Shown in pieces: positions 12,390 to 50,941 of a DNA stretch of 64,000 bases (positions are counted from its first letter, which is position 1; each line of letters starts with the position of its first letter). This DNA comes from an uncultured Rhodospirillales bacterium. Its GTDB lineage: Bacteria > Pseudomonadota > Alphaproteobacteria > RF32 > CAG-239. Made by a program: the position numbers and the translations under genes. The notes below the pieces were generated by a model, which saw nothing but the letters and a program-made list of their open reading frames with translations, was not told the DNA's origin and searched no databases. The stretch is from the NCBI GenBank assembly GCA_902761715.1, contig CACWLK010000004.1, positions 17,122-81,121 on the forward strand, in the 5' to 3' direction.

Positions 12390-13010
12390 TCAGATAATTC
12401 CCATTTTTTGCGCCGTTATAACCGCCTGAGTGCGGTTATTGGCGCCAACCGAACGCAACAGCGCATTTATATGCAATTTAACGGTTGCCTCAGAAACACC
12501 GATTTCATAGGCAATTTGTTTGTTTGAAAGCCCTTGCGCCACCAAATTTAAAACCTGATTTTGCCGGCTTGTCAGCATTTTGGACTGCCGCCCCTGATAA
12601 ACCGGAGAATTTTTATTAAGTAAAGTCGGTGGAATATATGTTCCGCCCTCGGCAATCAGTTTTAAGGCATTTAATAAAATTTTGCTTTCTGCACGTTTGC
12701 TGATATATCCGCTTGCCCCTTTTTCAAGGGCATTTCGAATATTTCTCGGATTCTCTGCCGCTGACACCACCACTAATCTGGCATCACCGGCTGACTTTTT
12801 AAGTTCATCGATTCCCTGTTCCCACGACGGTAAATCGTGCATTTCCAAATCAGCAACCACCATATCAAAATGCGGTTCCGTATCCAAAATTTTTAGTGTT
12901 TGAAGATAGTTTGCGGCCTGAATCACTGTAGCCGAATTATCAAGACTTTCAATTAACTTGCCCAACGCATCGCGAAAAAGTGCATGATCATCAGCAATTA
13001 AAACTTTCAT
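12390..13010 (-). CDS. NarL/FixJ (LuxR-type HTH) response regulator
   Basis: Receiver domain (KVLIADDH..., acceptor region MVVADLEMHD) plus a LuxR HTH (LTSRQNQVLNLVAQGLSNKQIAYEIGVSEATVKLHI). No histidine kinase gene is adjacent. Confidence 0.85.
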   Translation of the reverse strand: MKVLIADDHALFRDALGKLIESLDNSATVIQAANYLQTLKILDTEPHFDMVVADLEMHDLPSWEQGIDELKKSAGDARLVVVSAAENPRNIRNALEKGASGYISKRAESKILLNALKLIAEGGTYIPPTLLNKNSPVYQGRQSKMLTSRQNQVLNLVAQGLSNKQIAYEIGVSEATVKLHINALLRSVGANNRTQAVITAQKMGII

Positions 13011-13689: not shown

Positions 13690-14994
<1,305 letters not shown>

Positions 14995-15012
14995 TCTTTC
15001 AAGGTTCGCATC

Positions 15013-15047
15013 AAAAAAAGCACCGTTTCAACACGGTGCTTTTTTTA
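15013..15047. terminator. Rho-independent terminator after eno
   Basis: The stem AGCACCG/CGGTGCT (15019-15025 and 15034-15040) is followed by a T6 run and preceded by an A7 run. Confidence 0.75.
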
Positions 15048-15060
15048 TTTTTCTTTAGTT

Positions 15061-15218
15061 CAAAAAACTCGGAGAACGAGTCAAATAATAAGAAACTCCT
15101 CACCTTAAAACGCGAAGAACCGTTTAGATAAAGTCAAAATAAAAAGAGGAAAAATTTTAGTGTACCCAGTAGTACATGAATTTTTCCTCTTTGAAATTTT
15201 GGCTTTAGATGAGCGGTT
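15061..15218. repeat. Modular hairpin repeat, copy A (same family as 25921-26150); probable pgk terminator
   Basis: The module starts AAAACTCGGAGAA. The core GTTTAGATAAAGTCAAAATAAAAAGAGGAAAAATTTTAGTGTACCCAGTAGTACATGAATTTTTCCTCTT contains a perfect 13-bp stem (15144-15156 and 15179-15191). On the minus strand the stem is followed by a T-run. An outer imperfect inverted repeat (15118-15140 and 15196-15218) touches the pgk stop codon. Confidence 0.7.
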
Positions 15219-16428
15219 ATGCGCGTTTTAATACGGCAACTCCGGGCAACTCCTTCCCTTCCATCCACTCCAGAAAAGCTCCGCCTGCAGTAGAAATGTA
15301 GGAAAATTTATTGGCCACGCCGGCATTTTCCAAAGCCGAGACCGTATCACCGCCACCGGCTACTGACATAAGTTTTCCGGCGGATGTCAATTCTGCCGCA
15401 TGTTGAGCAACTTTGTTGGTGGCATTGTCGAACGGTTTCATCTCAAACACGCCGAGCGGCCCGTTCCAAACCAGAGTTTTGCACTCATCAAGTTTAGCGT
15501 TGATTGAAGCAATGGTTTTTTCACCGACATCAAGCAAATGACCGCCATCGGCCGGAATTTCATTTACTCCGAAGGTTTTATGCTCGGCATTAACCGCAAA
15601 CTCTTTAGCAACAACCACATCATCCGGAAGAACAATTTCGCAGTTATTAGCTTTTGCAACAGACATAATTTCTTTTGCGGTATCAATCATATCCATTTGT
15701 ACCAACGAATTTGCCTCATTGACGGCGTCAATTCCGCTGGCTTTCATAAAAGTATGAGCCATACCGCCGGAAATAACCAGCTTATCAACTTTCTTAACCA
15801 AATTATTAAGCAAATCCAATTTGGTAGAAACCTTTGAACCGCCGACAATCGCAATCAACGGACGAGTCGGGTTTGATAAAGCTCCCTCAAGAGCCTTAAC
15901 TTCTTCTTCCATCAAACGACCCATTGCCGCCGGGCGTTCTTTTGCGGCAGCAACCATTGACGCATGGGCGCGGTGAGCGGTTGAAAAAGCGTCTGAAACA
16001 TAAACATCTGCCGGTTTAACCAACTCTCTGGCAAAATCTTCATTGCCTTTCTTTTCCTCGTCATAAAAACGTAGATTTTCAAGCAACAAAACTTCGTCAT
16101 TGCTCATTTTGGCAACAGCGGTGCTGACTTTTTCACCGATACAGTCGTCAACAAACACAACTTTTTTGCCCAAGGCTTTCTGCAAATCACCGACAATATG
16201 TTGCAGGGAATTTTTCATGTCGCCTTTGCCTTCCGGACGGCCGAAGTGCGAAATCACAACTACTTTTGCCCCTTTGCTCATCAATTCTTTGATTGTCGGA
16301 ACCGTACGATCAATACGGGCAGTATTTGTAACCTTAAAATCCTCACTCATCGGCACATTCAAATCAGCACGCAGCATAGCGACTTTGCCCTGCAAATTGC
16401 CCAAATCATCAATAGTTTTATAATTCAT
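15217..16428 (-). CDS. pgk: Phosphoglycerate kinase
   Basis: 403 aa. RADLNVP, ISHFGRP and GGGDT motifs. Confidence 0.96.
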   Translation of the reverse strand: MNYKTIDDLGNLQGKVAMLRADLNVPMSEDFKVTNTARIDRTVPTIKELMSKGAKVVVISHFGRPEGKGDMKNSLQHIVGDLQKALGKKVVFVDDCIGEKVSTAVAKMSNDEVLLLENLRFYDEEKKGNEDFARELVKPADVYVSDAFSTAHRAHASMVAAAKERPAAMGRLMEEEVKALEGALSNPTRPLIAIVGGSKVSTKLDLLNNLVKKVDKLVISGGMAHTFMKASGIDAVNEANSLVQMDMIDTAKEIMSVAKANNCEIVLPDDVVVAKEFAVNAEHKTFGVNEIPADGGHLLDVGEKTIASINAKLDECKTLVWNGPLGVFEMKPFDNATNKVAQHAAELTSAGKLMSVAGGGDTVSALENAGVANKFSYISTAGGAFLEWMEGKELPGVAVLKRA

Positions 16429-16501
16429 ATTATTTATCCTTTAATCTTTTTAAACATAGACCGGCAGGATTACTGCCGGTCTCATTTTGCAACAATCGGA
16501 A

Positions 16502-17578
<1,077 letters not shown>

Positions 17579-17670
17579 TTAGCACGAATAGATTCATTTT
17601 CAAGCGATTTTTGTGTTTTCAAAAAAAATTACAATATTGTTTCATTTTCTCGATTCTGTACCGCTTCATA

Positions 17671-17699
17671 TTGACTTTTACTGTTTTTTAACGTATAAT
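17671..17699 (+). promoter_or_regulatory. Sigma70-type promoter of Cys-rich paralog 1 (TTGACT-17 nt-TATAAT)
   Basis: TTGACT at 17671-17676, a 17-nt spacer and TATAAT at 17694-17699, about 40 nt upstream of the ATG at 17740. The 32-nt stretch 17668-17699 is identical to 20384-20415. Confidence 0.7.
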
Positions 17700-17739
17700 G
17701 AACTATAGTGCGCACGTGGTATTATTGGGGAGACTGGTC

Positions 17740-20289
17740 ATGACAAAATCACTCAAATATATAGCAACCTCAATGCTGTTTGCCTGCGGTTGTTTTTGGA
17801 CTTTATCAGCCAACGCTAATGTATGTTTTCTCCCCAGAGGCAATTGCGCAGACTCTGAAGTTTCCGGCATAGATATAAACCCTGATGACCTTGCCAGTAA
17901 ATGTGTAGTCGATGGCTATACAACACGTAAAACCGACTGCGTTTCTCCGCAACAAATCGGTGATTATTGCCCTTATGACAACAATTGGGTAAAATGTTGC
18001 GGGGCCGAATATACCTTACAATGCGAAAGCACAAACATAGTTCTTGATAAATGCGGAAAATTAGTAAAATGCGGTTGTGCTGAAGAATTCAACTATATAG
18101 AACAAACAATCACTGAAGACAACAAGCCAAAAATTGTTTGCCGACGTTATAACCCTTTGAGTAGACCTTTTGACAACAGTCTTGCTGATTATGACAGCGG
18201 AATATGTTACCTTCCTACCTATGAAAACGGCAACCTGACTACTGTTGCTCTATACAAAGGCTGTATTTGTGACCCTACCATTTATCCCCGCACCCAAACA
18301 ATCTGCAAAGCTCGTGGCATGATTGGTGGTGGAACCGTATGTAAAGACAGCAGTCCTCAAGGAACTGAACGTTTTACTAAATGTGTATGTGCTGAAACCA
18401 TTCTCACAGATTCATGTGATTACGGTGTTCCGCCATCGGCTACTCAATGTACGTCTGAAGAGGGGGTACAATATACCTCTACCTGTTGTCAATGTAATGC
18501 TTCACAGTATCCATACACTACCATCCCGCCTGAGGTTGACACATACACCTCCTGCCGCAGTTTTCAAAATTGCAGCGGCGGGAACAGTGACCGCTATAGA
18601 GCCAAATCCTGCAAACCTGGCTATGAAGTCAACGAAAGTACCGGTAAATGTGAGCTCCAGACTTGTTCAAAGGCGTTAAAAGCATACTTAAAATACAGCT
18701 CCAACTCCTCTTACGGACTCCTTACCGCCAATGGTGTAGTTGACATTGATGGCAACACCAGCAACGCCACAAAAGTTATTGTGGCTGATGATGTAACCAT
18801 CACTACCCAAAGTACTAACGGTTCGTCATCAAGCAGTGGTGGTTATTATATGTGCAGACAGCGCACCTGTATCAAAAACTACGGCAGAACAGAATATTAC
18901 CAAGATACCGACAACTGTATGTGCATAAACTGCTGCCTTGAAAATCACATGAACGGCGATGCTCTTGAACAGTGCGAAATGTATCATCCTTGCAATTACA
19001 GTCAGTTGTATCCTTATAGTCAGTATGACACTGTTTGCAAACCCAATTACGATTATGTTTGTACTGACAAAGTATATAAAACCAGTTATTCAACTTCTAC
19101 TAACTATAAGGGCTTGGTAAACTCCAGTGCTACACAGTACATATCCGCCAGAGAGTTCTTAAATACCAATGCGGTCAATGATCCGCTTGCCGCCACAGCA
19201 AAGATGGTTTGTAACAACACGCCTACCATCACCTATACTGCGTCAACATTTCCTGCCAATGACACAGCTTCAGCAAGCAATCAGACCCTTAAGTTTTCTG
19301 ATGTTATTCTTAAGTTCTCAAGAACAACTAATTCTTACCGTAACCTTCAGTTAACGGATGGTGGTCTAAACATTACCGGAACACTTTATACCTATGGTCC
19401 GGTATCGATGAGCTCCTCATCGAGCAGTGGCAGTGTTGATATTACCGGAAAACTGGAAGTTATGGATAGTTTTACTTCTTCCGGATATTCTTATAATGAA
19501 TCATCATCTTATGGTTCCGGAACCATAAACATCTTGATTCCGGCAAAATATCGTAGCTCGAACCCGGCCCGCTTTACATTCGGTTCCGGACAGGTATTCA
19601 AAGTCAGCAATCTGGCAATTTCTTCCGCAACAGATCAGTATATGACTACTCATAGCGGTATTACTACTGCTATTGTCAACCAATATTTGCCTCTTGCATA
19701 CCCATATACTGCAACAATAGATTTTGAAGGTCCTTCATCATCTGGTACTGCTAATGTTTACACCAACCTTTCTCTTGGTTACATACCCGGCAGAACACTG
19801 CGCACCAGTTTTCTTACCCTTCGTATGTCCGGCAACCTTGACTGGAACATGTCCGGCAGATACGCCAATCACACCATCGGCTTGAGCACCGGTAGCAAGA
19901 TATATTCTTCTGACTATGGTCATGGTAACTATGCTCGTATTTATAACGGAAGTAACAAATCATATGCATGGTGCAAAATGACAGACACAATCTATTACGG
20001 ACGTGACCGACATCGTTTCCTAGACTGTGAAGCTGATTCACATATAGAGAGCGTAGGAACTAACGAGCCATTGGGAGCATCATCTTACTACGCTTGCTAC
20101 ATCAGCAGTTCCGGTTCTACCTATCGCCAAGGCTCAGCCTTCACGGTTACTGTTAAACCTGATGGTGATTGCAGCAGAATAACCACTACATCTAACTATG
20201 GCTGCAGTTTTGACTACTCTAAAGGGCATGATGAAGCATATCATGGACCTAAGACCGGTGTCATGCTGACCTGTGGAGATTCTGACTAA
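17740..20289 (+). CDS. Secreted cysteine-rich protein, paralog 1 (~849 aa), unknown family
   Basis: GGGGAGA RBS upstream. Signal peptide MTKSLKYIATSMLFACGCFWTLSANA|NV has an AXA site; LFAC is also lipobox-like. I counted about 46 Cys in the mature chain by hand. It is paralogous to 20459-23005. I recognise no motif from any known family. Confidence 0.85.
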   Translation: MTKSLKYIATSMLFACGCFWTLSANANVCFLPRGNCADSEVSGIDINPDDLASKCVVDGYTTRKTDCVSPQQIGDYCPYDNNWVKCCGAEYTLQCESTNIVLDKCGKLVKCGCAEEFNYIEQTITEDNKPKIVCRRYNPLSRPFDNSLADYDSGICYLPTYENGNLTTVALYKGCICDPTIYPRTQTICKARGMIGGGTVCKDSSPQGTERFTKCVCAETILTDSCDYGVPPSATQCTSEEGVQYTSTCCQCNASQYPYTTIPPEVDTYTSCRSFQNCSGGNSDRYRAKSCKPGYEVNESTGKCELQTCSKALKAYLKYSSNSSYGLLTANGVVDIDGNTSNATKVIVADDVTITTQSTNGSSSSSGGYYMCRQRTCIKNYGRTEYYQDTDNCMCINCCLENHMNGDALEQCEMYHPCNYSQLYPYSQYDTVCKPNYDYVCTDKVYKTSYSTSTNYKGLVNSSATQYISAREFLNTNAVNDPLAATAKMVCNNTPTITYTASTFPANDTASASNQTLKFSDVILKFSRTTNSYRNLQLTDGGLNITGTLYTYGPVSMSSSSSSGSVDITGKLEVMDSFTSSGYSYNESSSYGSGTINILIPAKYRSSNPARFTFGSGQVFKVSNLAISSATDQYMTTHSGITTAIVNQYLPLAYPYTATIDFEGPSSSGTANVYTNLSLGYIPGRTLRTSFLTLRMSGNLDWNMSGRYANHTIGLSTGSKIYSSDYGHGNYARIYNGSNKSYAWCKMTDTIYYGRDRHRFLDCEADSHIESVGTNEPLGASSYYACYISSSGSTYRQGSAFTVTVKPDGDCSRITTTSNYGCSFDYSKGHDEAYHGPKTGVMLTCGDSD

Positions 20290-20310
20290 CATCAACAGGT
20301 GTTACTTTTT

Positions 20311-20356
20311 CAAAATCGGTATGAAATTGACTTTTCATGCCGATTTTGATTTTTAA
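20311..20356 (+). terminator. Rho-independent terminator after paralog 1
   Basis: A 16-bp stem CAAAATCGGTATGAAA/TTTCATGCCGATTTTG with one G-U pair, followed by ATTTTT. Confidence 0.75.
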
Positions 20357-20386
20357 ACAACTTTTCCGATTCTACTCCTCTTAATA

Positions 20387-20415
20387 TTGACTTTTACTGT
20401 TTTTTAACGTATAAT
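20387..20415 (+). promoter_or_regulatory. Sigma70-type promoter of Cys-rich paralog 2 (TTGACT-17 nt-TATAAT)
   Basis: TTGACT at 20387-20392, a 17-nt spacer and TATAAT at 20410-20415. It is identical to the paralog 1 promoter. Confidence 0.7.
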
Positions 20416-20458
20416 AAAATATAATGCGCGCAAAGGGTAAAACACAGGGAGGTTCATC

Positions 20459-23005
20459 ATGAAAAATATGAAACATTTAATAGCTGCAGTGCTCATTGCA
20501 TGCGGCTGTATATACGCTTCACAAGCATATGCGAGTGTGTGTTTCCTCCCCTCCGGTGACTGCGGAGATTCAGGCGTTAACCCTGATGACTACATCCCTG
20601 ATTCTGACGCCCTTAAGACCAAATGCGCCGAGGCCGGCTATACTGTTGCCAAAAGCGACTGTGTTGACCCCAAAAAAATCGGTGATTTTTGCCCTTACGA
20701 CAACAAATGGGTCATCTGTTGCGCTCCTGAGTTCACCAACCAATGCGACAGCACAAACGAAATCGCAGAACGATGCGGCAATTTAGTAAAATGCGTCTGC
20801 CCTGATAAATTTGACTACTATGAAAGCGGTGATAACTGCATACGTCTCAGCAATGGTTCCTCTTATGCCAACGCTCGTGGTGACCGCAATAAAGGTATCT
20901 GTTATTTAAGAGAATATAAAAACGATGCCATAACTACAACCTCGCTTTATCAAGGTTGTTTGTGTAACGCAACCACCTATCCGCGTACTCCTGAGATTTG
21001 CCAAAACAAAGGCATGAAACCCGGCGGCATTATGTGCCAAGACGCCCCTGACGGTGATGAGCATTACAGCAAATGCGTCTGCGAAGAAACAACGCTGAAA
21101 TCATCTTGTAGTTATGGTATCCCAAACAATGCAACTACCTGTACCGATGAGGACGGATTGCAATATGTTTCTGAATGCTGCCAGTGTAATCAGGCAACTT
21201 ATCCGTATGACACACTTCCCAGTGAGGTCAAAACTTATGTCAAATGTACTACCGAGCGTAGTTGTTCCGGTGGTAGTCGTGAACGCTATAGAGCCACATC
21301 CTGCAACTCCGGATACGCTCTTAATGATGCCGGCAAATGCGTAAAAGAAACCTGTTCCAACGCCATTAAGGAACTGTTAAAAGCCACTTCAGACACGACC
21401 TATGGCCTTTTGACCACAACCAAAGTAATTGACGGCAACGGCAATACCAGCACGGCCAAAAAAGCCATTGTTGCTGATAGCGTTACCATAACCACCGCCG
21501 GCACCAACGGCTCTTCATCTTATACCCGTGAATATTGCATAAAGCGTGAGTGTCAAAAAGCCTCAGGCCCGCAACCGAATTATCCTAACGATCCTAGTTG
21601 TTTTTGCCGGACCTGCGGTATATGGCAACGTTCTACGAGTTTCTATGATGAGTTTGGCAACTATGACCCTTATAACGGCGCCCGTGAGCAATGGTACTTC
21701 AACCAAGTCGGAGCAACCTGCAATCAGCTGGAGCAAGCTCAAACCGGTGATTCATATTATGGTTGTAATAAAGACAATAATGGATATGGAAACACCAGCA
21801 AATATTTAACAGCCGTTTGTACTCAGACCACACTGAAAACCACAACCACTACCCAGGCGAAAGGACTGGTCGGCTCCGAAGCTACTGAATACATTTCAGC
21901 ATCTGAATATCTCAAAAAATTTGGTGATGATCCCATTGCCGATAACGCCAAAAACAACTGTAGCGGTATGCCGATTATTACCTATAAAGCATCAACTTTC
22001 CCGAGCAATGATTCGGCAACTAGTTCTAGTATAATCACATTCAAGAACGTAGAGCTCAACTTCCCGAGCATCGTTTCTATCTATCGTAGAGTAGTCATTA
22101 ATAATGGAGCTTTGACTGTCGATGGAACTCTTAATGACCATGGTTACCTTGAATTGCAGGGAGAAGGTGAAGTCAATATATCCGGCATTTTGAATATCCA
22201 CAACATTTTCAGTGCCTCAGGATATTCTTTCAACAGTGACTCTTCATATTTTGGCAGAGGCACGTTGGTTGACATCAGCCCGTCAACCATTAGCAACTCA
22301 ATCAGACTTGGAGACGGTCAGACTTTTGCTGTCGGGAACTTCCAAATCGGAAATAACACCGATACATACAGAAGCCGTTACAACGTAAGTATAACCGATT
22401 CAGAAACTGGTAAAGGATGCTCAGACACATCACATCTCCCATCAGCTAGTTCTGTGAGCAAGGTTTTCTCCTTCTACGGATCAAATAGCAGCTCACCTGC
22501 CAGTGTATATACCAACCTGCAACTGGGTTGGACAGGTTCCGGTAACTATCGCGCAAGAGGTTTAACCTTAAAACTATCAAATGCGCTTGACTGGTATATG
22601 TACAATCCTAACAGTACAGCAAAATACACTATTGGATTGAGCACAGGAAGCAAAATATATGTTACTGATAACAATGCCCGCATTATGAAAGGACGCAATT
22701 CTATCTACAAAAAATGTGAAATGGTATCGCAAGTTGATTACCAACGTCACAATCACTACAAAGTTACTAAATGCGGTTGTGACTGTAACCGTGATGGTCA
22801 CATATATGACAAGATTGCTTATATAACTTGTACAGCCAGTGATACCGGTTACAAGACGGTAGGTTACTCGACCAAAACACAGATTTGCAAAAGCGGTAGT
22901 AATTGTGGCGATCGAGCCTCATACATAGATACTAACTGCCAGATGACCTACCAAAGCTGTAATCATTGTAGCAGGTCTCCTGCAAGTCTGATAACCTGCG
23001 AATAG
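20459..23005 (+). CDS. Secreted cysteine-rich protein, paralog 2 (848 aa), unknown family
   Basis: GGGAGG RBS upstream. Signal peptide MKNMKHLIAAVLIACGCIYASQAYA|SV; LIAC is lipobox-like. About 50 Cys by hand count. It shares conserved blocks with paralog 1 (VCFLP.G.C.DS, DCV.P..IGD.CPYDN.WV.CC, CCQCN, RYRA.SC..GY, TIGLSTGSKIY). Confidence 0.88.
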   Translation: MKNMKHLIAAVLIACGCIYASQAYASVCFLPSGDCGDSGVNPDDYIPDSDALKTKCAEAGYTVAKSDCVDPKKIGDFCPYDNKWVICCAPEFTNQCDSTNEIAERCGNLVKCVCPDKFDYYESGDNCIRLSNGSSYANARGDRNKGICYLREYKNDAITTTSLYQGCLCNATTYPRTPEICQNKGMKPGGIMCQDAPDGDEHYSKCVCEETTLKSSCSYGIPNNATTCTDEDGLQYVSECCQCNQATYPYDTLPSEVKTYVKCTTERSCSGGSRERYRATSCNSGYALNDAGKCVKETCSNAIKELLKATSDTTYGLLTTTKVIDGNGNTSTAKKAIVADSVTITTAGTNGSSSYTREYCIKRECQKASGPQPNYPNDPSCFCRTCGIWQRSTSFYDEFGNYDPYNGAREQWYFNQVGATCNQLEQAQTGDSYYGCNKDNNGYGNTSKYLTAVCTQTTLKTTTTTQAKGLVGSEATEYISASEYLKKFGDDPIADNAKNNCSGMPIITYKASTFPSNDSATSSSIITFKNVELNFPSIVSIYRRVVINNGALTVDGTLNDHGYLELQGEGEVNISGILNIHNIFSASGYSFNSDSSYFGRGTLVDISPSTISNSIRLGDGQTFAVGNFQIGNNTDTYRSRYNVSITDSETGKGCSDTSHLPSASSVSKVFSFYGSNSSSPASVYTNLQLGWTGSGNYRARGLTLKLSNALDWYMYNPNSTAKYTIGLSTGSKIYVTDNNARIMKGRNSIYKKCEMVSQVDYQRHNHYKVTKCGCDCNRDGHIYDKIAYITCTASDTGYKTVGYSTKTQICKSGSNCGDRASYIDTNCQMTYQSCNHCSRSPASLITCE

Positions 23006-23020
23006 GTAAGTCTGTATTCC

Positions 23021-23053
23021 AAAAAAGAGAGAGGATAAAACCTCTCTCTTTTT
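23021..23053 (+). terminator. Rho-independent terminator after paralog 2
   Basis: Stem AGAGAGAGG/CCTCTCTCT (23025-23033 and 23040-23048) followed by TTTT. Confidence 0.8.
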
Positions 23054-23088
23054 GCTTGTGTATAAGTTACCGATTCACAACCGCAATT

Positions 23089-23117
23089 ATTGACCTTCAC
23101 TATTTTTTAACCTACTG
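23089..23117 (+). promoter_or_regulatory. Degenerate third copy of the promoter cassette (TTGACC-17 nt-TACTGT)
   Basis: CCGATTCACAACCGCAATTATTGACCTTCACTATTTTTTAACC aligns with the cassettes at 17655 and 20368. The -10 is weaker, and it sits about 150 nt upstream of the lipoprotein ATG. Confidence 0.4.
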
Positions 23118-23265
23118 TAGCTTATTATATATGCATAATGCGTTAATAGACTCATCAATTTTGTTTTTATATGTCTACCGGACAATAAACGGAACAGTTT
23201 TTTAATATTATTATCTACAACTTTTATGAAGCGAAATTTATTATTAACAATTAACATTAACAGGT

Positions 23266-24573
23266 ATGAAAACGATCAAGTTTTGGTCAATTATCACAGT
23301 AGCTGTGTTTTTGACCACCATGATGTTTACATCATGCGAGGACCCTCTGGATGACCCTGAAAATCAGGAAATCATCGAAAGTGAAGTCGTTGACGAAGGC
23401 GTTAGCTCTAACGTTACTACTCAACAGCTTTCCGGCACTACCGAAAACGGAAACACCGTTTCCGGCACTGAACTCTCTTATGAGTCATGGATTAGAGTTA
23501 AGACTAAGACCGGACCTAAAAAGGCTCCTGCTTATGCCTCAACCAGAGCTGCTTCCGGTAACGACGGCGACGTTGTTACTGTACTCTTGAAAGACGTGTT
23601 TCACAACACCGATACCACGATTACCCTCAATGACCAATACTTTGATATCGGAGAATACACCACCGATATCTCGTATTATGTCAAAGGTACTCGTCAGGAC
23701 GGTTATGTAACAATCACCGACTCTGTTATGGTCTATACCTTAAGTTTTGAAGATTTTTCTTTTGCGTATGAGCTTGAGTACGAAGTTGCCGTTTATGATG
23801 ACGGCATCACCAAAGAGACCATGCCGTACCACAAAATTAAAAATTTGCAAGACAAGGGGATGGAAATTGTTCCTATCGAGAACATTCATGACGAATCTTT
23901 AACTGTTTTTGCTCGCAGACAAATCAACCACTCCATCACGGTTGAATTCTGTGGCGAGACTTACACCCTCAAGGGCAAAGTCATTCTGCAGACGCCATTT
24001 GGCACTGCGTTTGAACCCTATGTAAAAAAGAGTGATCTCTTGGACGCTCGTTACTATACTGAAGGCGGACAGGTTTATTCTGCATTGAGGCTCAGGCGTT
24101 ATTGGTCTGATGGTCAGACAAAGACAGAAAACGTTAGTGTACCGATAAATGTCAGTATTGACGATGAATTCAAGAGCTTAGTGTTCCATGGTGTACATCC
24201 TGAAAGTATTGAGCTTGTCTCATATGAACTTAGTGATGTGCATAACACCATGTCTCCGATGTATCTCCAACCATATGTTACTTGTGGGGGAGAATATCGA
24301 ACACTTAACATCAACTATGGTTTCTTTGAATTCGGAATGGAAGTCTTTAACGATACCCCATACTATTATGACGGCTATCTGCAATATGATTTCCCTGTTC
24401 CGACCTTCCAGAACTTCCGTTTCTCTGAGCAACAACTCATTCAAAACCAATCTGGGGAAAATGAAACCGGCAAATACGTTGGCTATCGTTTAATTCGCAA
24501 TGTCAAAGCCGATTTCGACAGGCTCGAATGTGAAGCGCAATTCAATATCGGATTGGTGTTCTACGACGAATAA
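23266..24573 (+). CDS. Putative lipoprotein (435 aa), unknown function, Bacteroidota-style N-terminus
   Basis: Signal MKTIKFWSIITVAVFLTTMMFTSC, followed by the acidic stretch EDPLDDPENQE straight after the lipobox Cys. The rest is rich in beta-strand-like Y/T/V/E segments. I recognise no known motif. Confidence 0.75.
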   Translation: MKTIKFWSIITVAVFLTTMMFTSCEDPLDDPENQEIIESEVVDEGVSSNVTTQQLSGTTENGNTVSGTELSYESWIRVKTKTGPKKAPAYASTRAASGNDGDVVTVLLKDVFHNTDTTITLNDQYFDIGEYTTDISYYVKGTRQDGYVTITDSVMVYTLSFEDFSFAYELEYEVAVYDDGITKETMPYHKIKNLQDKGMEIVPIENIHDESLTVFARRQINHSITVEFCGETYTLKGKVILQTPFGTAFEPYVKKSDLLDARYYTEGGQVYSALRLRRYWSDGQTKTENVSVPINVSIDDEFKSLVFHGVHPESIELVSYELSDVHNTMSPMYLQPYVTCGGEYRTLNINYGFFEFGMEVFNDTPYYYDGYLQYDFPVPTFQNFRFSEQQLIQNQSGENETGKYVGYRLIRNVKADFDRLECEAQFNIGLVFYDE

Positions 24574-24600
24574 CACGTTTTCCTACCTTCTTTTCAAAAA

Positions 24601-24634
24601 CACCGCGCAGGCTCGTCCTGCCCGGTGTTTTTTT
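24601..24634 (+). terminator. Rho-independent terminator after the lipoprotein gene
   Basis: Stem CACCGCGCAGG/CCTGCCCGGTG with one mismatch, followed by T7. Confidence 0.75.
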
Positions 24635-24639
24635 ATAAC

Positions 24640-24666
24640 AAAAAAGGACGGCTTTTGCCGTCCTTC
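24640..24666 (-). terminator. Rho-independent terminator after rplQ
   Basis: On the minus strand AAGGACGGC-AAAA-GCCGTCCTT is followed by TTTTTT. Confidence 0.8.
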
Positions 24667-24690
24667 TTAAATCACTAACCGATTCGCTGA

Positions 24691-25281
24691 TTATTTTTCA
24701 GCTGTTTTGGTTGTTTTTTTAGCTTTTGCCGGAGCTTTGGCTTTTTTCTCTTCAGACTTTTTTTCTGTCTTTTTTTCAGCAGGCTTATCAGCTTTTTTCT
24801 CGGTCTTCTTTTCAGCCTTTTTCTCAGCTTTCTTAGCCTCAGCTTCAGCAGCTTTTTCTTGAGCTTCTGCAGTAGCTTTTTCTTCAGCTACACGAGCCAA
24901 ATCTTTAGCGCCTTTAGCTTTTACATCTCTGTCAACCAACTCAACAATAGCCATCTGAGCCGCATCACCATAACGGATACCGGCTTTCAAAACGCGGGTA
25001 TAACCACCGTTGCGATCTTTGTAGCGCTCTGCCAAAGTAGAAAACAACTTTGCAACAACTTCTTCATCACGCAAAAAGGCCAACGCCAAACGACGGCTGT
25101 TCAAATCACCTTTTTTACCAAAAGTAATCATGTTATCGGCAAATGTTCTCAATTCTTTAGCACGTGGCAAAGTAACTGTAATTTGTTCGTGAGTCAACAA
25201 AGCGCAGGTAAGGTTTGAAAACAAAGCTCTTCTCTGGCTGGTCGGCATATTAAATTTTCTATGTGCATCACCATGTCTCAT
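24691..25281 (-). CDS. rplQ: 50S ribosomal protein L17 with a ~80-aa Lys/Ala/Glu-rich C-terminal extension
   Basis: The N-terminus [24 protein letters not shown] and GGYTRVLK are L17 hallmarks. The tail is [41 protein letters not shown]. Confidence 0.93.
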
Positions 25282-25396
25282 GGCATTTTCCTTTCATTTC
25301 ATATAGTTGTGCTTTGACTGGCAAAGCGGATAATTCCGTACCGATACTACCTTCATACATATCGGTTTTACGCCGAAACATCTTCAGCGCAAGCGC

Positions 25397-25425
25397 AATA
25401 TATATAATATTTTTTATATTTGCAA
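25397..25425 (-). promoter_or_regulatory. Candidate sigma70 promoter for rplQ (TTGCAA-17 nt-TATATT)
   Basis: The minus strand reads AAAAATGC-TTGCAA-ATATAAAAAATATTATA-TATATT. The same AAAAATGCTTGCAA module precedes tRNA-Asp. Confidence 0.45.
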
Positions 25426-25484
25426 GCATTTTTATAATAATATTTTAACCAATCTCCGCCACTCTTAAGCCAAGGAGAAAAGCC

Positions 25485-25922
25485 ATGAAATTATTGCTGC
25501 AACGTGTCAAAAATGCCAACGTCTCGGTTGAGGGCAAAATCGTCGGAAAAATCAATCAGGGGTTACTGATTTTTGTCGGCATTGTCAAAGGCGACACTCC
25601 GCAACAGGCCGAATATTTAGCTCGCAAATCAGCAAACTTACGCATATTTGAGGACGAACAAGGCAAAATGAACCTATCGGTAAAAGATGTTGGCGGCTCC
25701 GCCCTTGTAATTTCCCAATTTACACTTGCCGGCGACTGCACACAGGGCAACCGCCCCGGATTTGACAATGCCGCCCGCCCTGACGACGCTAAATCGCTAT
25801 ATGAATATTTTTCAACCCAACTGAAAGCCAACGGAGTGCCGGTCGAAAACGGCATTTTTCAGGCCGATATGCAAGTTAGCCTAATTAACGACGGTCCAGC
25901 AACCTTTATCCTTGAACACTAA
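25485..25922 (+). CDS. dtd: D-aminoacyl-tRNA deacylase
   Basis: 145 aa. MKLLLQRV, the SQFTL motif and NDGPATF near the C-terminus. AAGGAG RBS upstream. Confidence 0.9.
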   Translation: MKLLLQRVKNANVSVEGKIVGKINQGLLIFVGIVKGDTPQQAEYLARKSANLRIFEDEQGKMNLSVKDVGGSALVISQFTLAGDCTQGNRPGFDNAARPDDAKSLYEYFSTQLKANGVPVENGIFQADMQVSLINDGPATFILEH

Positions 25923-26150
25923 AAAGACTCGAAAATTAGGCTAACCTGCAAAAACCTCTTTTGCTCTCACAAAATGCAAAGAATGGTTTAGATAAAATCA
26001 AAATAAAAAGAGAGAAAATTTTAGTGTACATAGAAGTACATGAATTTTCTCTCTTACCAAATTCCGAGAAAACTCGGAGAATTAGGCTAATACGCAGAAA
26101 CCTCTTTTGTGAAGTGTACAAAGAAGTACATAAACAAAAGAGGTTTCAAG
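25921..26150. repeat. Modular hairpin repeats, copies B1 and B2 (two tandem modules), between dtd and rpoA
   Basis: There are two modules, each starting A(C)TCG(A/G)A(A/G)AATTAGGCTAA...GCA(A/G)AAACCTCTTTTG. Hairpin B1 spans 26008-26055 and hairpin B2 spans 26098-26146. Both have perfect 13-bp stems around the apical motif AGTGTAC-N2-AG-N-AGTACAT. On the minus strand B1 is followed by a T-run, so it is the probable rpoA terminator. Confidence 0.75.
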
Positions 26151-26173
26151 TAGTAGTCAATTATACGAGTTTT

Positions 26174-27184
26174 CTAAAAATGGTCGTCCACTCTCTTAAT
26201 CAACTCCTCAATATTTTCTGGCGGCCAACCTGGTGTTTCCATACCGAGATGGATACCCATTTTAGCCAACACTTCTTTGATTTCATTCAAAGACTTACGA
26301 CCAAAGTTCGGTGTACGGAGCATTTCTGCTTCAGTCTTTTGAACCAAATCACCGATGTAAACGATATTATCATTCTTCAGGCAGTTAGCTGAACGAACAG
26401 AAAGTTCAAGCTCTTCAACCTTTTTCAACAAATTCTTGTTGAATGGCAATTCTTCTTTTTCAGCTTCAACTTCGCTTTCCGGCTCATCAAAGTTAATGAA
26501 CGGTTTCAATTGATCTTGCAAGATACGGGCTGCAAATGCAACAGCATCTTCAGGAGTAACTACACCGTTTGTTTCAACAACCAAAGTCAACTTATCATAG
26601 TCGGTAACTTGTCCTACACGGGTGTTATCAACACGGTAAGAAACACGTTTAACCGGTGAATAGATTGCATCAACCGGAATCAAACCGATAGGAGCATCAG
26701 CCGGTTTATTTTGGCTTGCCGGAACATATCCTTTACCTGTGTTTACAGTTAATTCCATATTAATTTTTGCGCCGGCATCAAGATTACAGATAACCAAATC
26801 CGGATTCATAATCTCAACATCGTGACCGGTTTCAATCATTGCGGCAGTAACCACGCAAGGACCTTCAGCTTTCAAAGTCATAGATTTTGTGCCTTCGCTA
26901 TGAACCGCAACTGCCAAACATTTAACATTCAGCACGATATCGGTAACATCTTCACGAACACCCGGAATAACTGAAAATTCATGCAAAACACCGTCAATTT
27001 TAATGGCGGTAACAGCTCCGCCTTGCAAAGAAGACAACAAAACCCGTCTCAATGCGTTACCAAGAGTGAGACCAAAGCCTCTCTCCAATGGTTCTACCAC
27101 TATTTTAGCTTTGTTTCCGCCATCGCTGGGAACAACATCTAAATTAGTCGGTTTAATAAGTTCTTGCCAATTCTTTTGAATCAC
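26174..27184 (-). CDS. rpoA: DNA-directed RNA polymerase subunit alpha
   Basis: 336 aa. [17 protein letters not shown] and the C-terminal domain [23 protein letters not shown]. Confidence 0.96.
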
Positions 27185-30398: not shown

Positions 30399-31121
30399 AT
30401 GAGCAGACTGACAAAAAGACAAATAATCATTATAACCTCTATTACACTTGCGACTGTTTTTCACTTTGTCAAACCTGCAATATATTCTGCAATATGGGGA
30501 AAATTCACACCACAAACGCAGTCCGAGTTGAGCGAAGATTTTTATGATCTAGACAATCAACCTTGGCAAAGAATTTCTATCGGCGGCTATGATATAGAAT
30601 ACCGCTTGCGCACCAAATATCATGTAAGAGGTCGCATAATCTGGGTAGATTGGAACGACGGTATAATCAGCACATGGTATCATTCAGCCGGCAAAAAGGG
30701 CGTAAAGTTGTACAACAGCGTTGCTGCGGTCGATGTCTCAATTGCTCATGGTGCTACTGCGGATCCAGACAACCTTAAAAAGATAAAATTTTCTCACCCC
30801 AAACGCGCCATCACTTATACCTTTTTGTACAAAGACAACCCGATTATTAATCACGACGAAATTAACAATAACCACATAATACCGGCCACTCCTGCGATCA
30901 GGAGAGCTATTGCGTTGCTAAAAAAAGGCGATATTGCCGAATTTGAAGGCTACCTGATGGATTGGAAAGGCACCGGAAAATTATCTTGGTTTGAAATTGA
31001 GACCGCTACCAAACGTGGCGACATTCACACCAAACAGTTATACGGTGGTATCCCCGGCGCCGGAATGTGCCGACAATTTTACGTTACCAAAATTACTTAT
31101 AAAAACCATGTTTTTGAATAA
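30399..31121 (+). CDS. Hypothetical membrane-anchored protein (240 aa) inserted between rplO and secY
   Basis: An N-terminal TM anchor (IIIITSITLATVFHFV) precedes a globular domain with no motif I recognise. A strong terminator follows. Confidence 0.6.
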   Translation: MSRLTKRQIIIITSITLATVFHFVKPAIYSAIWGKFTPQTQSELSEDFYDLDNQPWQRISIGGYDIEYRLRTKYHVRGRIIWVDWNDGIISTWYHSAGKKGVKLYNSVAAVDVSIAHGATADPDNLKKIKFSHPKRAITYTFLYKDNPIINHDEINNNHIIPATPAIRRAIALLKKGDIAEFEGYLMDWKGTGKLSWFEIETATKRGDIHTKQLYGGIPGAGMCRQFYVTKITYKNHVFE

Positions 31122-44508: not shown

Positions 44509-45735
44509 TTACTTTGTAAAATTTTTATACCTCAAACACGCTTCCGTAACTTTTTCGGATATAAGTCCGTTTACTGACGGCAACGTTTTAAACTTTGGTA
44601 TTGCAACACTGTTTTGCTTTAAAAAATCGTCAAAATCACCCGCATACCCGCCGCTTATAAGAGCCTCGGCAAGTCGATAACAATCCGGACGTTTTCGTTT
44701 TTTTATTTTCACATCACGACAAATTAACGTTGGGATTCCGCATGCTGCTGTTTCGCAACTGGCAAATGAATCAAAAGTATGCACGACAAAAACCTTCTTT
44801 TTTCCCAAAATTCCCGGATATATATTGCCGACATCTTCATATTGGCTTGTCAGTTCTTTTTTGTACTTTCCGGCATAAACCCGCCATTCCGGCATTTTTT
44901 TGCCTTTGTTTTCCAGCGGTTTGCCGTTATAAAAATACATTTTTTTGTTTTCCAAACATTTCTCATACAAAAAATCACATACCTCATCGGGTGTCCGCGG
45001 ACCGCTTATAAAAACGACATTACAACCCTTTTCTCTCAAAACCAGAGCTTTATTCCATATTTTTTTGCATACGCCAATATCAAAAACAATGTCGTCATTT
45101 CCTGTTCGTCCTCCTAAGCTGAACACCGCTATCGGGTTATTTCCTTTTATGTTATTTATCGCCTGTTTCAACTTTTGTTGACCGAACTTTTGAGCAATAA
45201 AAACCTTTGTCATGTTATGAATAATGCCTGTTGTCATCAAAAACTTTTCCGGCATTGATTTTACAAATTTTGCCTCTTTAGCTGATAACATATGTTCCGG
45301 CACATTCACCACATCTGCCCACTTATAATTATAGGCACACGCAGTCAGCACCACCGCAACCACCCAACCTTTATGATTTTTGGCATAATACTCTTTTACG
45401 GCGCGACACAGCTCATCTGTATTTTGTCCGGCAAATTTGCCTTCTGATTGATCACACGCCGTTATAAACACTCTCGGCGGCAAAATTCTGTTTGCAAAAT
45501 ACGCATCAAGACATTTAAATACATCTTTATCAAAAAGCTGTTTATTCTTATATCGATTATATCGTAATGAACCGGAACAAACCTTGTTTACAAACATATC
45601 CCACGAAAACGCAAAACTTATTTTTTTATTATTACGATTTTGGCGCACCAACCGAACAACCAGCCCTTTAATCTGATTTCTCTCTCCGGCGTTCGGAGTA
45701 AACATTGCAAAACAAGTGGTCAAAAACTTATACAT
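44509..45735 (-). CDS. ELM1/GT-B-fold-like protein (putative glycosyltransferase-like, function unknown)
   Basis: The blocks VFSLGGRTGN, ISGPRTP and VVHTFDSFASCETAACGIPTL resemble the ELM1 (PF06258-type) pattern as I remember it. The start is placed at MYKFL because GGAG lies 6 nt upstream. Confidence 0.4.
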   Translation of the reverse strand: MYKFLTTCFAMFTPNAGERNQIKGLVVRLVRQNRNNKKISFAFSWDMFVNKVCSGSLRYNRYKNKQLFDKDVFKCLDAYFANRILPPRVFITACDQSEGKFAGQNTDELCRAVKEYYAKNHKGWVVAVVLTACAYNYKWADVVNVPEHMLSAKEAKFVKSMPEKFLMTTGIIHNMTKVFIAQKFGQQKLKQAINNIKGNNPIAVFSLGGRTGNDDIVFDIGVCKKIWNKALVLREKGCNVVFISGPRTPDEVCDFLYEKCLENKKMYFYNGKPLENKGKKMPEWRVYAGKYKKELTSQYEDVGNIYPGILGKKKVFVVHTFDSFASCETAACGIPTLICRDVKIKKRKRPDCYRLAEALISGGYAGDFDDFLKQNSVAIPKFKTLPSVNGLISEKVTEACLRYKNFTK

Positions 45736-45904
45736 AACAAACTCCATTGCACACCATACCAACTCATGGTTAAAAAATAATAAAATTGAGTCCGTGCCTT
45801 CTACACACTGCTTTTATACAATTGTCAAAAACTGACATCCGGCGACACAGACCTCTTGCCACCACCAAACAATGTGATATCATAAAACCCTTAGGAGAAA
45901 AACC

Positions 45905-50533: not shown

Positions 50534-50552
50534 TCAAAAGAGATACCAAATT

Positions 50553-50585
50553 AAAAATCCCTCCTTTTCGGAGGGATTTTTTTAT
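50553..50585. terminator. Bidirectional rho-independent terminator
   Basis: Stem AAATCCCTCC/GGAGGGATTT (50556-50565 and 50571-50580) with T7 downstream and an A-run upstream. Confidence 0.8.
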
Positions 50586-50941
50586 TTTATTTCCGACAAT
50601 TTATTCATCACAATCTCACGGCGTTCGGGAGGATTGCCTTCTGCTTCGGCATATTCACGCATAATTTTTACAATCTGACTTTTATATCTTCCCGAATTAT
50701 TGGCAATTTTAACTAAATCATAAACTGCCATATTAAAAATTTGGTGATAAGGGGACACCATCTGTTCGGCAATTTTTACATATGTCGGTGTGCAATCCCC
50801 GTTTTTCTTAGCGGTTCTTGCCTCAAAAATCATTCGTTGTAACCTTTTGGCCGATGTTTCATTCATCGTAATCTTATGATGTCTGAACACTTTTCCGGTT
50901 TTTGCCACAATCGACGTCAGTTTCTGAACTATTTTTGCCAT
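50582..50941 (-). CDS. Hypothetical protein (119 aa)
   Basis: The start is placed at MAKIVQK because GGAGGTGG lies upstream. The longer ORF-track version would run into the divergent gene. I recognise no motif. Confidence 0.5.
   Translation of the reverse strand: MAKIVQKLTSIVAKTGKVFRHHKITMNETSAKRLQRMIFEARTAKKNGDCTPTYVKIAEQMVSPYHQIFNMAVYDLVKIANNSGRYKSQIVKIMREYAEAEGNPPERREIVMNKLSEIK

Follow-up and report, generated by a model that had tools for sequence, protein, structure and literature searches.

A strain-variable cassette of a cysteine-rich secreted protein and a lipoprotein in uncultured gut Alphaproteobacteria, with a putative role at the cell surface

Introduction

What could a gut bacterium do with two adjacent genes for long, secreted and extremely cysteine-rich proteins? 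The question is raised by genes A and B of an uncultured Rhodospirillales bacterium, which lie on contig CACWLK010000004.1, within a stretch of 64,000 nucleotides that was analysed as a whole (hereafter, the window). An initial annotation had described the two as a tandem pair of paralogs with no recognisable family. The analysis given here leads to a reading to which a probability of about 0.45, somewhat short of even odds, is assigned. It proposes that A and B are highly expressed, disulfide-stabilised, strain-variable surface adhesins or coat proteins, which work with an outer-membrane lipoprotein and diversify by recombination. All features below are on the plus strand and are numbered from the first letter of the window.

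The genes and their control regions

Both reading frames are present and intact where they had been described, between gapA and the ribosomal genes, of which rplQ is the neighbour. Gene A (17740..20289) encodes an 849-aa secreted protein with 48 Cys, for which homologs (P0001-P0009) and an AlphaFold model are available, and gene B (20459..23005) encodes its 848-aa paralog with 52 Cys. A longer ATG for gene A, at 17698, falls within the -10 box of its promoter. As all A homologs begin at the MTKS codon and a GGAG ribosome-binding site precedes 17740, the latter was taken as the correct start. Further downstream is gene C (23266..24573), also called lipoC, which is discussed below.

The two proteins are 41% identical across 808 aa in a pairwise alignment, in which 45 Cys of A are aligned with Cys of B. 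The mature chains hold 46 (A) and 50 (B) Cys, the very range given by the initial annotation, and its hand count for the first ~300 mature residues, about 29 Cys, proved to be exactly 29 in each. The Cys blocks that it had quoted are likewise found in the alignment. The Cys fraction is 5.7-6.1% in A and B, against 1.5% in the other long ORFs of the window. The reported abundance of N-x-S/T triplets holds for A (20, with 12.1 +/- 2.9 expected) and fails for B (13, with 12.4 expected).

In A, the signal peptide is followed by a Cys-rich N-module (about aa 47-310), a long beta-hairpin (aa 361-455), a beta-solenoid-like region (about aa 495-750; nt ~19222-19989) and a Cys-containing C-terminal cap. 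The N-module contains four recurring CxC...Y(P) motifs. BLAST self-matches inside this module are not significant (E>=0.08), so no repeat family is claimed.

Each of the two genes was said to have its own strong promoter, ribosome-binding site and terminator, and this was borne out. The promoter of gene A (17671..17699; TTGACT-17 nt-TATAAT) matches the sigma-70 consensus at 11 of 12 positions, and is conserved ahead of paralog B and of the L001, L003 and L006 orthologs. The promoter of gene B (20387..20415) has the same two hexamers and spacing, again with an 11/12 match, and sits inside a 68-nt direct repeat (D3) that is common to the promoter region of A and 85% identical to it. Intrinsic terminators follow both genes, with a 17-bp stem and a T-run after A (20310..20349) and a 13-bp stem and a T-run after B (23022..23053). 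Before gene C there is a promoter-like element (23090..23118; TTGACC-17 nt-TACTGT), identified from the sequence and from an alignment with the stretches that precede C in L001 and L003. Homology links it to the A and B promoters, its -10 is weak, and a conserved 5'UTR of about 150 nt lies downstream of it. Paralogous cassettes also have a conserved upstream region of ~110 nt in common. This conserved head of promoter, 5'UTR and signal peptide was absent from the initial annotation. An Rfam scan of 14900-26300 gave nothing above the gathering score. The locus is probably among the most highly expressed of these bacteria.

Export signals

The predicted signal peptide covers aa 1-26 of A (nt 17740-17817) and aa 1-25 of B. 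Both have two lysines among the first seven residues, and residues 8-22 have a mean Kyte-Doolittle hydropathy of 1.65-1.85. The AxA signal peptides seen in the pair turn out to be a trait of the whole family: position -1 is Ala in 53 of 59 members, position -3 is A, S, T or V in 56 of 59, and VCF stands at a fixed position. Because this AxA site is conserved family-wide at a fixed position, Sec export of A and B, as predicted secreted proteins of the signal peptidase I type, is well supported.

The embedded lipobox (LFAC or LIAC) that had also been pointed out fares worse, as it is not conserved. Bacterial lipoproteins have a lipobox, [LVI][ASTVI][GAS]C, where a short h-region ends; as even a permissive pattern fits only 33 of the 59 members, A and B were not classed among them. 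L006 does not have a Cys at the lipobox position; L006, P0010 and P0041 do not have a lipobox, and the AxA site downstream is conserved instead. The lipobox of A and B is probably not functional. A Cys is found in the h-region of the signal peptide in 58/59 members.

Pfam scans of A, B, C and 48 family members, and inspection of the flanks of distant cassettes, found no secretion system, beta-barrel domain, sorting motif or anchor for A and B; those flanks hold housekeeping or polysaccharide genes only. There are no dsb genes within the window. The Cys-rich proteins end in ...LITCE, ...TCGDSD or ...GMGY.

A family with no recognisable relatives

A search of 1.84 billion proteins placed A and B in a family of 72 clusters at 50% identity, in which a conserved, putatively disulfide-bonded N-terminal module is joined to variable, beta-solenoid-like C-terminal halves. 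Among 48 members that are only 20-45% identical to A, 13 Cys are invariant and 20 further ones are at least 90% conserved. The counts of Cys in the mature chains are even. Such even counts and the conserved scaffold fit a disulfide-stabilised protein. The family, together with its cassette, was found only in uncultured gut Alphaproteobacteria. These bacteria, which are uncultured and presumably anaerobes, occur commonly in human metagenomes, and their MAGs go under the names 'uncultured Azospirillum sp.' or 'Alphaproteobacteria bacterium'.

As had been proposed, no known family could be recognised. Pfam and NCBIfam gave no match for A, B or C at E<=1. Among the 48 members, none matched Pfam at E<=0.01, and NCBIfam returned one spurious match and no other. 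The PDB sequence search, with single sequences and with profiles, gave nothing below E 0.07. The view that A and B form a new family, with no recognisable sequence or structural relatives, is therefore supported by these searches and by the structural comparison below. The EGF-like Cys spacing that had been suggested found no backing in Pfam, which gives neither an EGF nor a TNFR match; the Foldseek matches to EGF/TNFR-type domains (Pvs25, TNFR2, DR5 and 4-1BB) have E 1-9 and a probability <=0.08, and are not significant. A literature search found no description of the Cys-rich family; one preprint, on cysteine-rich repeats and horizontal gene transfer, is unrelated to it.

The two-gene cassette

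The tandem pair of paralogs was not upheld as the unit of organisation, which is instead a cassette of one Cys-rich gene and one lipoprotein gene. Where a locus is long enough, the Cys-rich gene is nearly always followed by a homolog of lipoC, and the pair is still together in the rearranged genome L007. A scan of human-gut contigs, for which the N-terminal sub-alignment of the family was used, gave 32 non-redundant cassettes, frequently in tandem arrays (L017, L028, L052, L056, L060, L063, L071 and L085). The cassettes are multicopy and inserted at several different housekeeping junctions. L003 and L006 have one copy each, and other related genomes have arrays; the window itself has two Cys-rich genes and one lipoC. 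Orphan lipoC genes also occur, L045 being arranged as Cys-lipoC-lipoC and L056, L063 and L071 starting with lipoC.

Gene C encodes a predicted 435-aa lipoprotein with the lipobox FTSC. A lipobox is present, and Cys24 invariant, in all 18 homologs compared (FTSC, VASC, MTSC or FASC), and Ser23 is nearly invariant, as expected of a bacterial lipoprotein. The protein consists of two tandem homologous domains, the internal duplication being detected by hhalign with a probability of 98.6% and E 1e-15. The 18 homologs gave only scattered matches in Pfam and NCBIfam, with E>0.02. The adjacency of the genes suggests that lipoC is a functional partner of the Cys-rich protein.

Strain variability and recombination

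The locus is a hypervariable island, a point absent from the initial annotation. In a same-species comparison with L003, DNA identity is 99.1% in the flanks and 88.6% in the pgk-gapA segment, and between the two cores no DNA similarity could be detected; the genome with the 99.1%-identical flanks carries a single Cys-rich gene, whose product is only 37% identical to A. Between genomes, PGK, GapA and RpoA are 91-99.7% identical, but identity is only 24-66% in the Cys-rich protein and 46-73% in lipoC. The diverged block is framed by a hairpin repeat of 85 nt, whose two copies (direct repeat D2) are 86% identical. The left copy (15107..15191; fold z-score -5.1) marks its left edge, exactly where the identity to L003 falls from 99.1% to 88.6%, and the right copy (25971..26055; fold z-score -5.6) sits at its right edge.

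Within one group of 12 alleles, nonsynonymous and synonymous polymorphisms number 16 and 2 in the C-terminal part of the Cys-rich protein, and 2 and 3 in its N-terminal module (p=0.048). The signal is weak in the pooled test (p=0.054), and dN/dS between close alleles rests on small counts. Across cassettes, the N-terminal halves of the Cys-rich protein and lipoC co-vary (Spearman 0.75), whereas their C-terminal halves shuffle independently (0.32). In L046 and L081, the same Cys C-terminus accompanies different lipoC C-domains, and L009 and L011 show the reverse.

This independent shuffling bears on a rival explanation, in which the Cys-rich protein is a polymorphic secreted toxin or bacteriocin, with its N-terminus for export or receptor binding and its variable C-terminus for killing, and lipoC is the cognate immunity lipoprotein. 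The conserved N-terminus and variable C-terminus, the tandem arrays, the orphan lipoC genes and the replacement of the cassette at the strain level are all in line with it, and the lectin-like bacteriocin LlpA is among the weak Foldseek matches (E 6.2, not significant). However, a toxin domain was found in none of the 48 members, and the partner C-terminal halves do not show the strict covariation expected of such pairs. Two Cys-rich genes share one lipoC in the window, and the variable halves all seem to resemble one beta-rich scaffold. Furthermore, lipoC, with ~430 aa, homology in all cassettes and a conserved N-domain, is unlike immunity proteins. The cassette was not assigned to the polymorphic toxin-immunity systems, and this explanation is considered quite unlikely.

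Predicted structure of A

An early AlphaFold model of A, from a 12-sequence alignment, was mediocre (pLDDT 62), and its Foldseek search was empty. With the 48-member alignment, the pLDDT rose to 81.6. The predicted fold begins with Cys-rich hairpin modules and continues, according to DSSP, with regular rungs of three strands, which recur at intervals of 19-23 residues between 516 and 610 and also further on; it ends in a small Cys-containing cap and not in a barrel. Foldseek searches of PDB and BFVD with this model found no significant neighbour (best E 0.9). The weak tail of matches consists mostly of beta-helix adhesins and tailspikes (Ag43, EspP and tailspikes at E 0.9-9, non-significant) and of EGF/TNFR-type modules, none significant. 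On the DSSP pattern and these non-significant matches, the C-terminal half is predicted to be beta-solenoid-like, a trait that the initial annotation had not named. Its conserved residues are hydrophobic or structural, with no polar or catalytic residue conserved family-wide; R534 is the sole polar invariant, in the close subfamily.

A solenoid-like half also invites the thought of an enzyme. The protein would then be a secreted beta-helix that degrades or binds glycans such as mucin or dietary polysaccharide, similar to pectate lyases or tailspike depolymerases, and lipoC its surface glycan-binding partner, comparable to the enzyme and SGBP pairs of PULs, with the variation setting substrate specificity. 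Tailspike depolymerases, K5A lyase and pectate lyase do occur among the weak Foldseek matches, polysaccharide genes adjoin some cassettes, and one member (P0032) has a sub-threshold Pectate_lyase_4 match (E 0.011; 15.8 bits, where the cut-off is 24). Yet no glycoside hydrolase or lyase of Pfam or NCBIfam was found above threshold among the 48 members, and the structural character of solenoid conservation argues against this reading. The transporter and regulator genes typical of utilisation loci were not found near the cassettes, and enzymes are rarely swapped for 37%-identical alleles inside one species. An assignment to pectate-lyase-like enzymes was rejected, the profile match being confined to P0032 and no conserved acidic or basic cluster appearing in the alignments; a glycan-directed role in general seems improbable.

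It is very unlikely that A and B stay inside the envelope as a disulfide-cross-linked lattice like the chlamydial complex or as a thiol or metal buffer: the extreme Cys content, the signal peptide with its h-region Cys and the want of any detected outer-membrane translocation signal would suit this, but a structural protein of the envelope interior would not usually be hypervariable between strains or shuffled into mosaics, the Cys form a fixed, even-numbered intramolecular scaffold and not scattered free thiols, and neither OmcA nor OmcB is similar to A and B.

Proposed role and mechanism

In the preferred reading, that of a variable surface adhesin or coat, A and B would represent, as two alleles or as two paralogs, a secreted protein that is specific to the lineage and highly expressed, forming with C a strain-variable module of the envelope or cell surface. 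The surface location and the interaction with the host are inferred. Each gene would be transcribed from its own near-consensus sigma-70 promoter, which the sequence shows. The product would leave the cytoplasm through Sec, and signal peptidase I would cleave it behind the conserved AxA; as this motif suggests, an x-V-C-F N-terminus would result. In the periplasm, the ~46-50 Cys would pair into ~23-25 disulfides and lock the conserved N-terminal stack of small beta-hairpin modules as a protease-resistant stalk, as suggested by the model and by a Cys scaffold that is conserved and even in number. The variable C-terminal beta-solenoid would be the exposed head, facing a ligand or antigen. The two-domain lipoprotein C, in the outer membrane, may hold or present the protein via its conserved N-domain, with its own variable C-domain exposed too; the gene pairing and the covariation of the N-terminal halves point to this anchoring role. 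Finally, diversity would come from recombination, both between the conserved heads (promoter, 5'UTR, signal peptide) and by way of the flanking housekeeping genes. Alleles would thereby be replaced, copy numbers changed and mosaics shuffled, a pattern to be expected of a target under pressure from phage, IgA or competitors.

A bolder version is offered tentatively, as a conjecture that may well not hold in full. In it, the cassette is an undescribed envelope system of uncultured gut and rumen Alphaproteobacteria, in which a disulfide-knotted stalk of new fold is fused to a variable beta-solenoid head and is presented or exported by a dedicated two-domain outer-membrane lipoprotein, independently of known secretion pathways. 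Multiple cassettes per genome, with an identical promoter/5'UTR/signal-peptide head, would swap their variable bodies and so bring about recombination-driven antigenic or receptor variation in a commensal.

The cassette appears to be the most conspicuous strain-variable locus of these gut Alphaproteobacteria. Should it prove to be a surface module, it would be the obvious candidate for their adhesin, phage receptor and IgA target; it would also serve as a strain-tracking marker and as an example of how a Gram-negative, living in an anaerobic niche, presents a protein with many disulfide bonds. Structural databases may gain two new protein folds or families, those of the Cys-rich module and of the lipoC domain, and the design of a conserved head with a variable body may show a new route to surface variation in commensals.

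Comparison with known systems

One likeness is to beta-helix surface adhesins and autotransporter passengers (Ag43, pertactin and EspP) and to phage tailspikes. The C-terminal half of A is predicted as ~20-residue three-strand rungs; these proteins, like A and B, are secreted, large, S/T/N/G-rich and strain-variable, and make up the bulk of the non-significant Foldseek tail. However, A and B lack an autotransporter beta-barrel, a TPS domain, a tailspike N-terminal adaptor and any sequence-family match, and they have a unique N-module (~300 aa, ~29 Cys) and a dedicated lipoprotein partner. A type Va autotransporter was rejected, as there is no Autotransporter Pfam match and the model ends in the Cys-containing cap instead of a 12-strand barrel. 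Two-partner secretion (TpsA/TpsB) was rejected as well: neither Haemagg_act nor Omp85/POTRA Pfam domains occur in A, B, C or their relatives, and the partner is a two-domain lipoprotein.

Chlamydial OmcA and OmcB are, like A and B, Sec-exported Cys-rich envelope proteins of a Gram-negative bacterium. They show no sequence similarity to A and B (no Pfam match at E<=1, no PDB sequence match). Moreover, OmcB is conserved and has DUF11 repeats, whereas the A/B family is hypervariable and is predicted to combine a hairpin stack with a solenoid.

The variant-specific surface proteins (VSPs) of Giardia and other Cys-rich variant surface antigens of gut parasites offer an analogy. In common with A and B as these are read here, they are Cys-rich (5-12%) extracellular proteins of anaerobic gut dwellers and form divergent paralog families with a conserved and a variable part, in which the Cys scaffold is presumed to resist proteases. 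VSPs, however, belong to eukaryotes; they are type-I membrane proteins marked by CXXC motifs and by a TM-CRGKA tail that is conserved at the C-terminus. A and B have CxC, CC and CPYDN motifs instead and lack a TM anchor, their conserved part lies at the N-terminus, and Pfam gives no VSP match; the resemblance is not homology.

At the level of the locus, the closest parallels are surface-antigen loci that vary between strains and are maintained by recombination, such as the O-antigen/gnd, flagellin and capsule loci, where a non-homologous core is likewise flanked by housekeeping genes of raised divergence in near-identical genomes (here, 88.6% vs 99.1%). Loci that evolve under diversifying or frequency-dependent selection typically bear such a signature of core and flank. 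Unlike those loci, the present one consists not of polysaccharide biosynthesis clusters but of two-gene protein-coding cassettes, which are multicopy and occupy several housekeeping junctions.

Gene structure and expression signals

The two open reading frames proposed in the initial annotation are real. Gene A (17740-20289) and gene B (20459-23005), both on the plus strand, encode proteins of 849 and 848 aa, which are 41% identical over 808 aligned residues. The ORF lister opens A at an upstream ATG, 17698, which falls within the -10 hexamer; position 17740 is preceded by a GGAG Shine-Dalgarno sequence, and MTKS is the start in all homologs. As had been claimed, each gene carries its own promoter (17671-17699 for A and 20387-20415 for B, both TTGACT-N17-TATAAT with an 11/12 match) and its own strong hairpin terminator (20310-20349 and 23022-23053, respectively), all on the plus strand. 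Because intact ORFs of conserved length occur in dozens of independent assemblies, an artefact or pseudogene is ruled out.

The cysteine counts were also borne out. The precursors contain 48 (A) and 52 (B) cysteines and the mature chains 46 and 50, both even numbers that bound the 46-50 range given earlier, and exactly 29 lie in the first 300 mature residues of each, where about 29 had been estimated. Cysteines align between A and B at 45 positions, and each protein would presumably contain about 24 disulfide bonds. They make up ~6% of A and B versus 1.5% of the window's other long ORFs. The next most cysteine-rich ORF (44509-45762, minus strand; 416 aa, 15 Cys, 3.6%) has a Mito_fiss_Elm1 match (PF06258, E 1e-10). 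The reported abundance of N-x-S/T triplets holds for A (20 vs 12.1 +/- 2.9 expected) and not for B (13 vs 12.4 expected).

The lipoprotein partner and the cassette

The next plus-strand gene after B is gene C, or lipoC (23266-24573), which encodes a lipoprotein of 435 aa. Its lipobox is FTSC, with Cys24 invariant in 18 homologs, and an acidic PEVIESEV-like stretch then follows. Two homologous domains in tandem make up the protein, as hhalign shows (probability 98.6%, E 1e-15). Upstream of C lies a degenerate version of the A/B promoter. The ~150-nt leader at 23119-23265 is kept in the related loci L001 and L003 (GTCTACCGGAC.ATAAACGGAACAG...TTATTATTAACAATTAA); it has no match in Rfam and may be a regulatory RNA.

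The functional unit is a cassette of a Cys-rich gene plus lipoC, which the initial annotation had missed. In the related genomes, a C homolog always accompanies the Cys-rich gene: L001 has two Cys-rich genes and C, L003 has C and a single Cys-rich gene at the place where the window has two, and L006 and L007 have one each, with C encoded on the other strand. A search with an N-terminal profile yielded 78 loci, nearly all of them in human-gut metagenomes. A lipoC gene follows the Cys-rich gene in almost every locus of sufficient length, and tandem arrays such as lipoC-Cys-lipoC-Cys-lipoC are common. The cassettes are inserted at differing housekeeping junctions: in the window the junction is gapA/rplQ; in L029-L045 the cassettes lie downstream of eno; in L007, L025 and L052 they adjoin lepA; and in other loci they adjoin tgt/ABC or polysaccharide genes. 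No secretion-system genes were found in the flanks of the cassette loci. Immediately upstream of the cassettes in two loci (L017:205-1539 and L055:4382-7741) are genes for polysaccharide pyruvyl-transferase and GT2; this may tie the cassettes to surface-polysaccharide loci or may be a coincidence.

Family signature and hosts

Word-indexed searches returned 9 close clusters and 2 distant ones and no more, and an exhaustive profile search of 1.84 billion representatives returned 72 clusters at E<=1e-3, 55 of them at E<=1e-10. Most are 600-1080 aa long and have the N-terminal 300-350 residues in common. The signal peptide has 26-28 residues and an AxA end, with Ala at -1 in 53 of 59 members, which is consistent with cleavage by SPase I. 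It is followed by x-V-C-F-x-x-[GDE]-x-x-C, then CPY[DN]xxVxCC, then four CxC...Y(P) motifs. In 48 members with 20-45% identity to A, 13 cysteines are invariant and another 20 positions, mainly Cys, are at least 90% conserved, while the C-terminal halves are of several types, with endings such as ...LLTCE, ...GMGY and ...WSDSDGGL. Pfam and NCBIfam assigned a family to none of the 48, in keeping with the earlier statement that no family is recognisable. The embedded lipobox suggested for A and B was not upheld: despite at least one Cys (e.g. ACGC, SACL, FCCG) in the signal-peptide h-region of 58 of the 59 members, including A (17740-17817) and B (20459-20533), no consistent lipobox is found.

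Hosts could be identified as MAGs labelled 'uncultured Azospirillum sp.' from human gut, 'Alphaproteobacteria bacterium Tb.RUG.69' from rumen, and GCA_045116295.1. The loci of higher GC are of this lineage too, since they encode a LepA 90% identical to the one in L007. A 2.6-kb family contig binned as Bacteroidales is probably mis-binned. One library match, P0073, is an outlier of 740 aa in which six tandem ~45-aa Cys repeats (C..YPY..C..C..Y..C..GY..G.C....C), resembling A residues 250-310, are fused to DUF285/BspA-like leucine-rich repeats. It points to the family's last Cys sub-module being present in other bacteria too, as a free-standing repeat.

Predicted structure of A

The AlphaFold2 model, built on the 48-member alignment, has a mean pLDDT of 81.6 and a pTM of 0.66, with 430 residues at 90 or above. 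Only the signal peptide and first loop (1-45), which includes the invariant VCF...C loop at the mature N-terminus, the tip (383-431) of a long hairpin and three short loops are modelled with low confidence. DSSP assigns short hairpin modules to the Cys-rich part (60-306), followed by a helix (309-319), a 19-residue two-stranded ribbon (361-379 and 437-455) and two helices within 470-490. Further on come regular triplets of 4-residue strands, with rungs beginning at 516, 535, 555 and 578 and continuing to ~750, and a Cys-containing C-terminal cap. Such a predicted rung pattern is what a three-sided beta-solenoid typically shows. In Foldseek searches, no neighbour reached significance in either PDB (best E 0.9) or BFVD (best E 0.17). 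The non-significant tails contain two kinds of entry: tailspikes, K5A lyase, Ag43, EspP and pectate lyase, and the Cys-rich modules of Pvs25, TNFR2 and DR5. Based on the DSSP pattern and these tails, the architecture may be described as a disulfide-rich hairpin stalk plus a beta-solenoid-like head, with no family assigned.

Hypervariability and mosaicism

PGK, GapA and RpoA of the window are 91-99.7% identical to those of L001, L003 and L006, whereas the Cys-rich proteins are 66, 37.5 and 24% identical and lipoC 73, 54 and 46%, respectively. Compared as DNA, the window and L003 agree at 99.1-99.2% over ~7 kb on each side. Identity falls to 88.6% in pgk-gapA and the first ~360 nt of A; similarity is undetectable in the remainder of A, throughout B and in the 3' half of C, with 86% in the 5' part of C and 96% in rplQ-dtd. 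This block is bracketed exactly by two copies (15107-15191 and 25971-26055; 86% identical) of an 85-nt direct repeat. The repeat folds into a long, stable hairpin (z about -5), shows compensatory changes from one copy to the other, sits between the convergent genes eno/pgk and dtd/rpoA, and has more copies in L006. Possibly it serves as a bidirectional terminator or is a REP-like element, and it may also mark a recombination boundary. As read from the alignments, such a divergence profile marks allelic replacement through recombination, and the locus would be under diversifying or frequency-dependent selection by presumed selective agents.

In the higher-GC relatives, a ~110-nt upstream region is nearly identical across all cassettes, including paralogs on one contig, and A and B have a 68-nt promoter repeat in common. 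The cassette design thus puts a conserved head (promoter, 5'UTR, signal peptide) before a variable body, an arrangement that favours gene conversion and is probably why assemblies are often broken at the Cys-rich genes. In one 12-allele group, nonsynonymous and synonymous polymorphic sites number 16:2 in the C-terminal part vs 2:3 in the N-module (p=0.048); with a pooled p of 0.054, the contrast is no more than suggestive.

Across 32 non-redundant cassettes, the N-terminal parts of the Cys-rich protein and lipoC co-vary (Spearman 0.75). Were the two a toxin-immunity pair, the C-terminal parts should do likewise; they do not (Spearman 0.32), and explicit mix-and-match combinations of them exist. 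Furthermore, there is no toxin domain, the Cys-rich and lipoC genes occur at 2:1 in the window, and lipoC is large and conserved, so that such a pair is unlikely. A beta-helix glycan enzyme with a glycan-binding lipoprotein is similarly improbable, given the lack of family matches and of conserved catalytic residues. A periplasmic structural or redox protein, against which the hypervariability counts, is slightly more doubtful.

Other features of the window

A 240-aa ORF without a Pfam match (30399-31121, plus, the opposite strand) lies between secY and rplO inside the ribosomal superoperon and is conserved at that position in L003. A gene of 1212 aa, also without a Pfam match, adjoins secY in L007. 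A 390-aa ankyrin-repeat protein is encoded at 51489-52661 (plus strand) in a low-GC patch (50001-52000, GC 34.8%), next to a 186-aa ORF without a Pfam match (50582-51145). Bacterial ankyrin repeats often mark host-interaction effectors. A response-regulator/GerE-type gene (12390-13010, minus strand) is present in the window and L003 and absent at the matching place in L001, a small indel between related genomes.

Proposed role and relation to known systems

On the best-supported reading, a tentative one with a rough probability of 45%, A/B and lipoC constitute a highly expressed, Sec-exported, disulfide-stabilised and strain-variable adhesin, coat, receptor or antigen module. The conserved stalk of the Cys-rich protein would cooperate with the conserved N-domain of lipoC, a putative outer-membrane lipoprotein, while the variable beta-solenoid head and the variable lipoC C-domain would face outward, presumably exposed at the surface.

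No curated family includes either partner, no structural relative of either is detectable, and the literature yielded no description of the Cys-rich family or of lipoC. It is possible, if doubtful, that the cassette is a genuinely new system of surface display and variation. As a function, a strain-variable beta-helix surface protein is of a known kind; the novelty, in gut Alphaproteobacteria, lies in the Cys-knotted N-module, in an obligate lipoprotein partner of two domains and in the conserved-head/variable-body organisation of the cassette.
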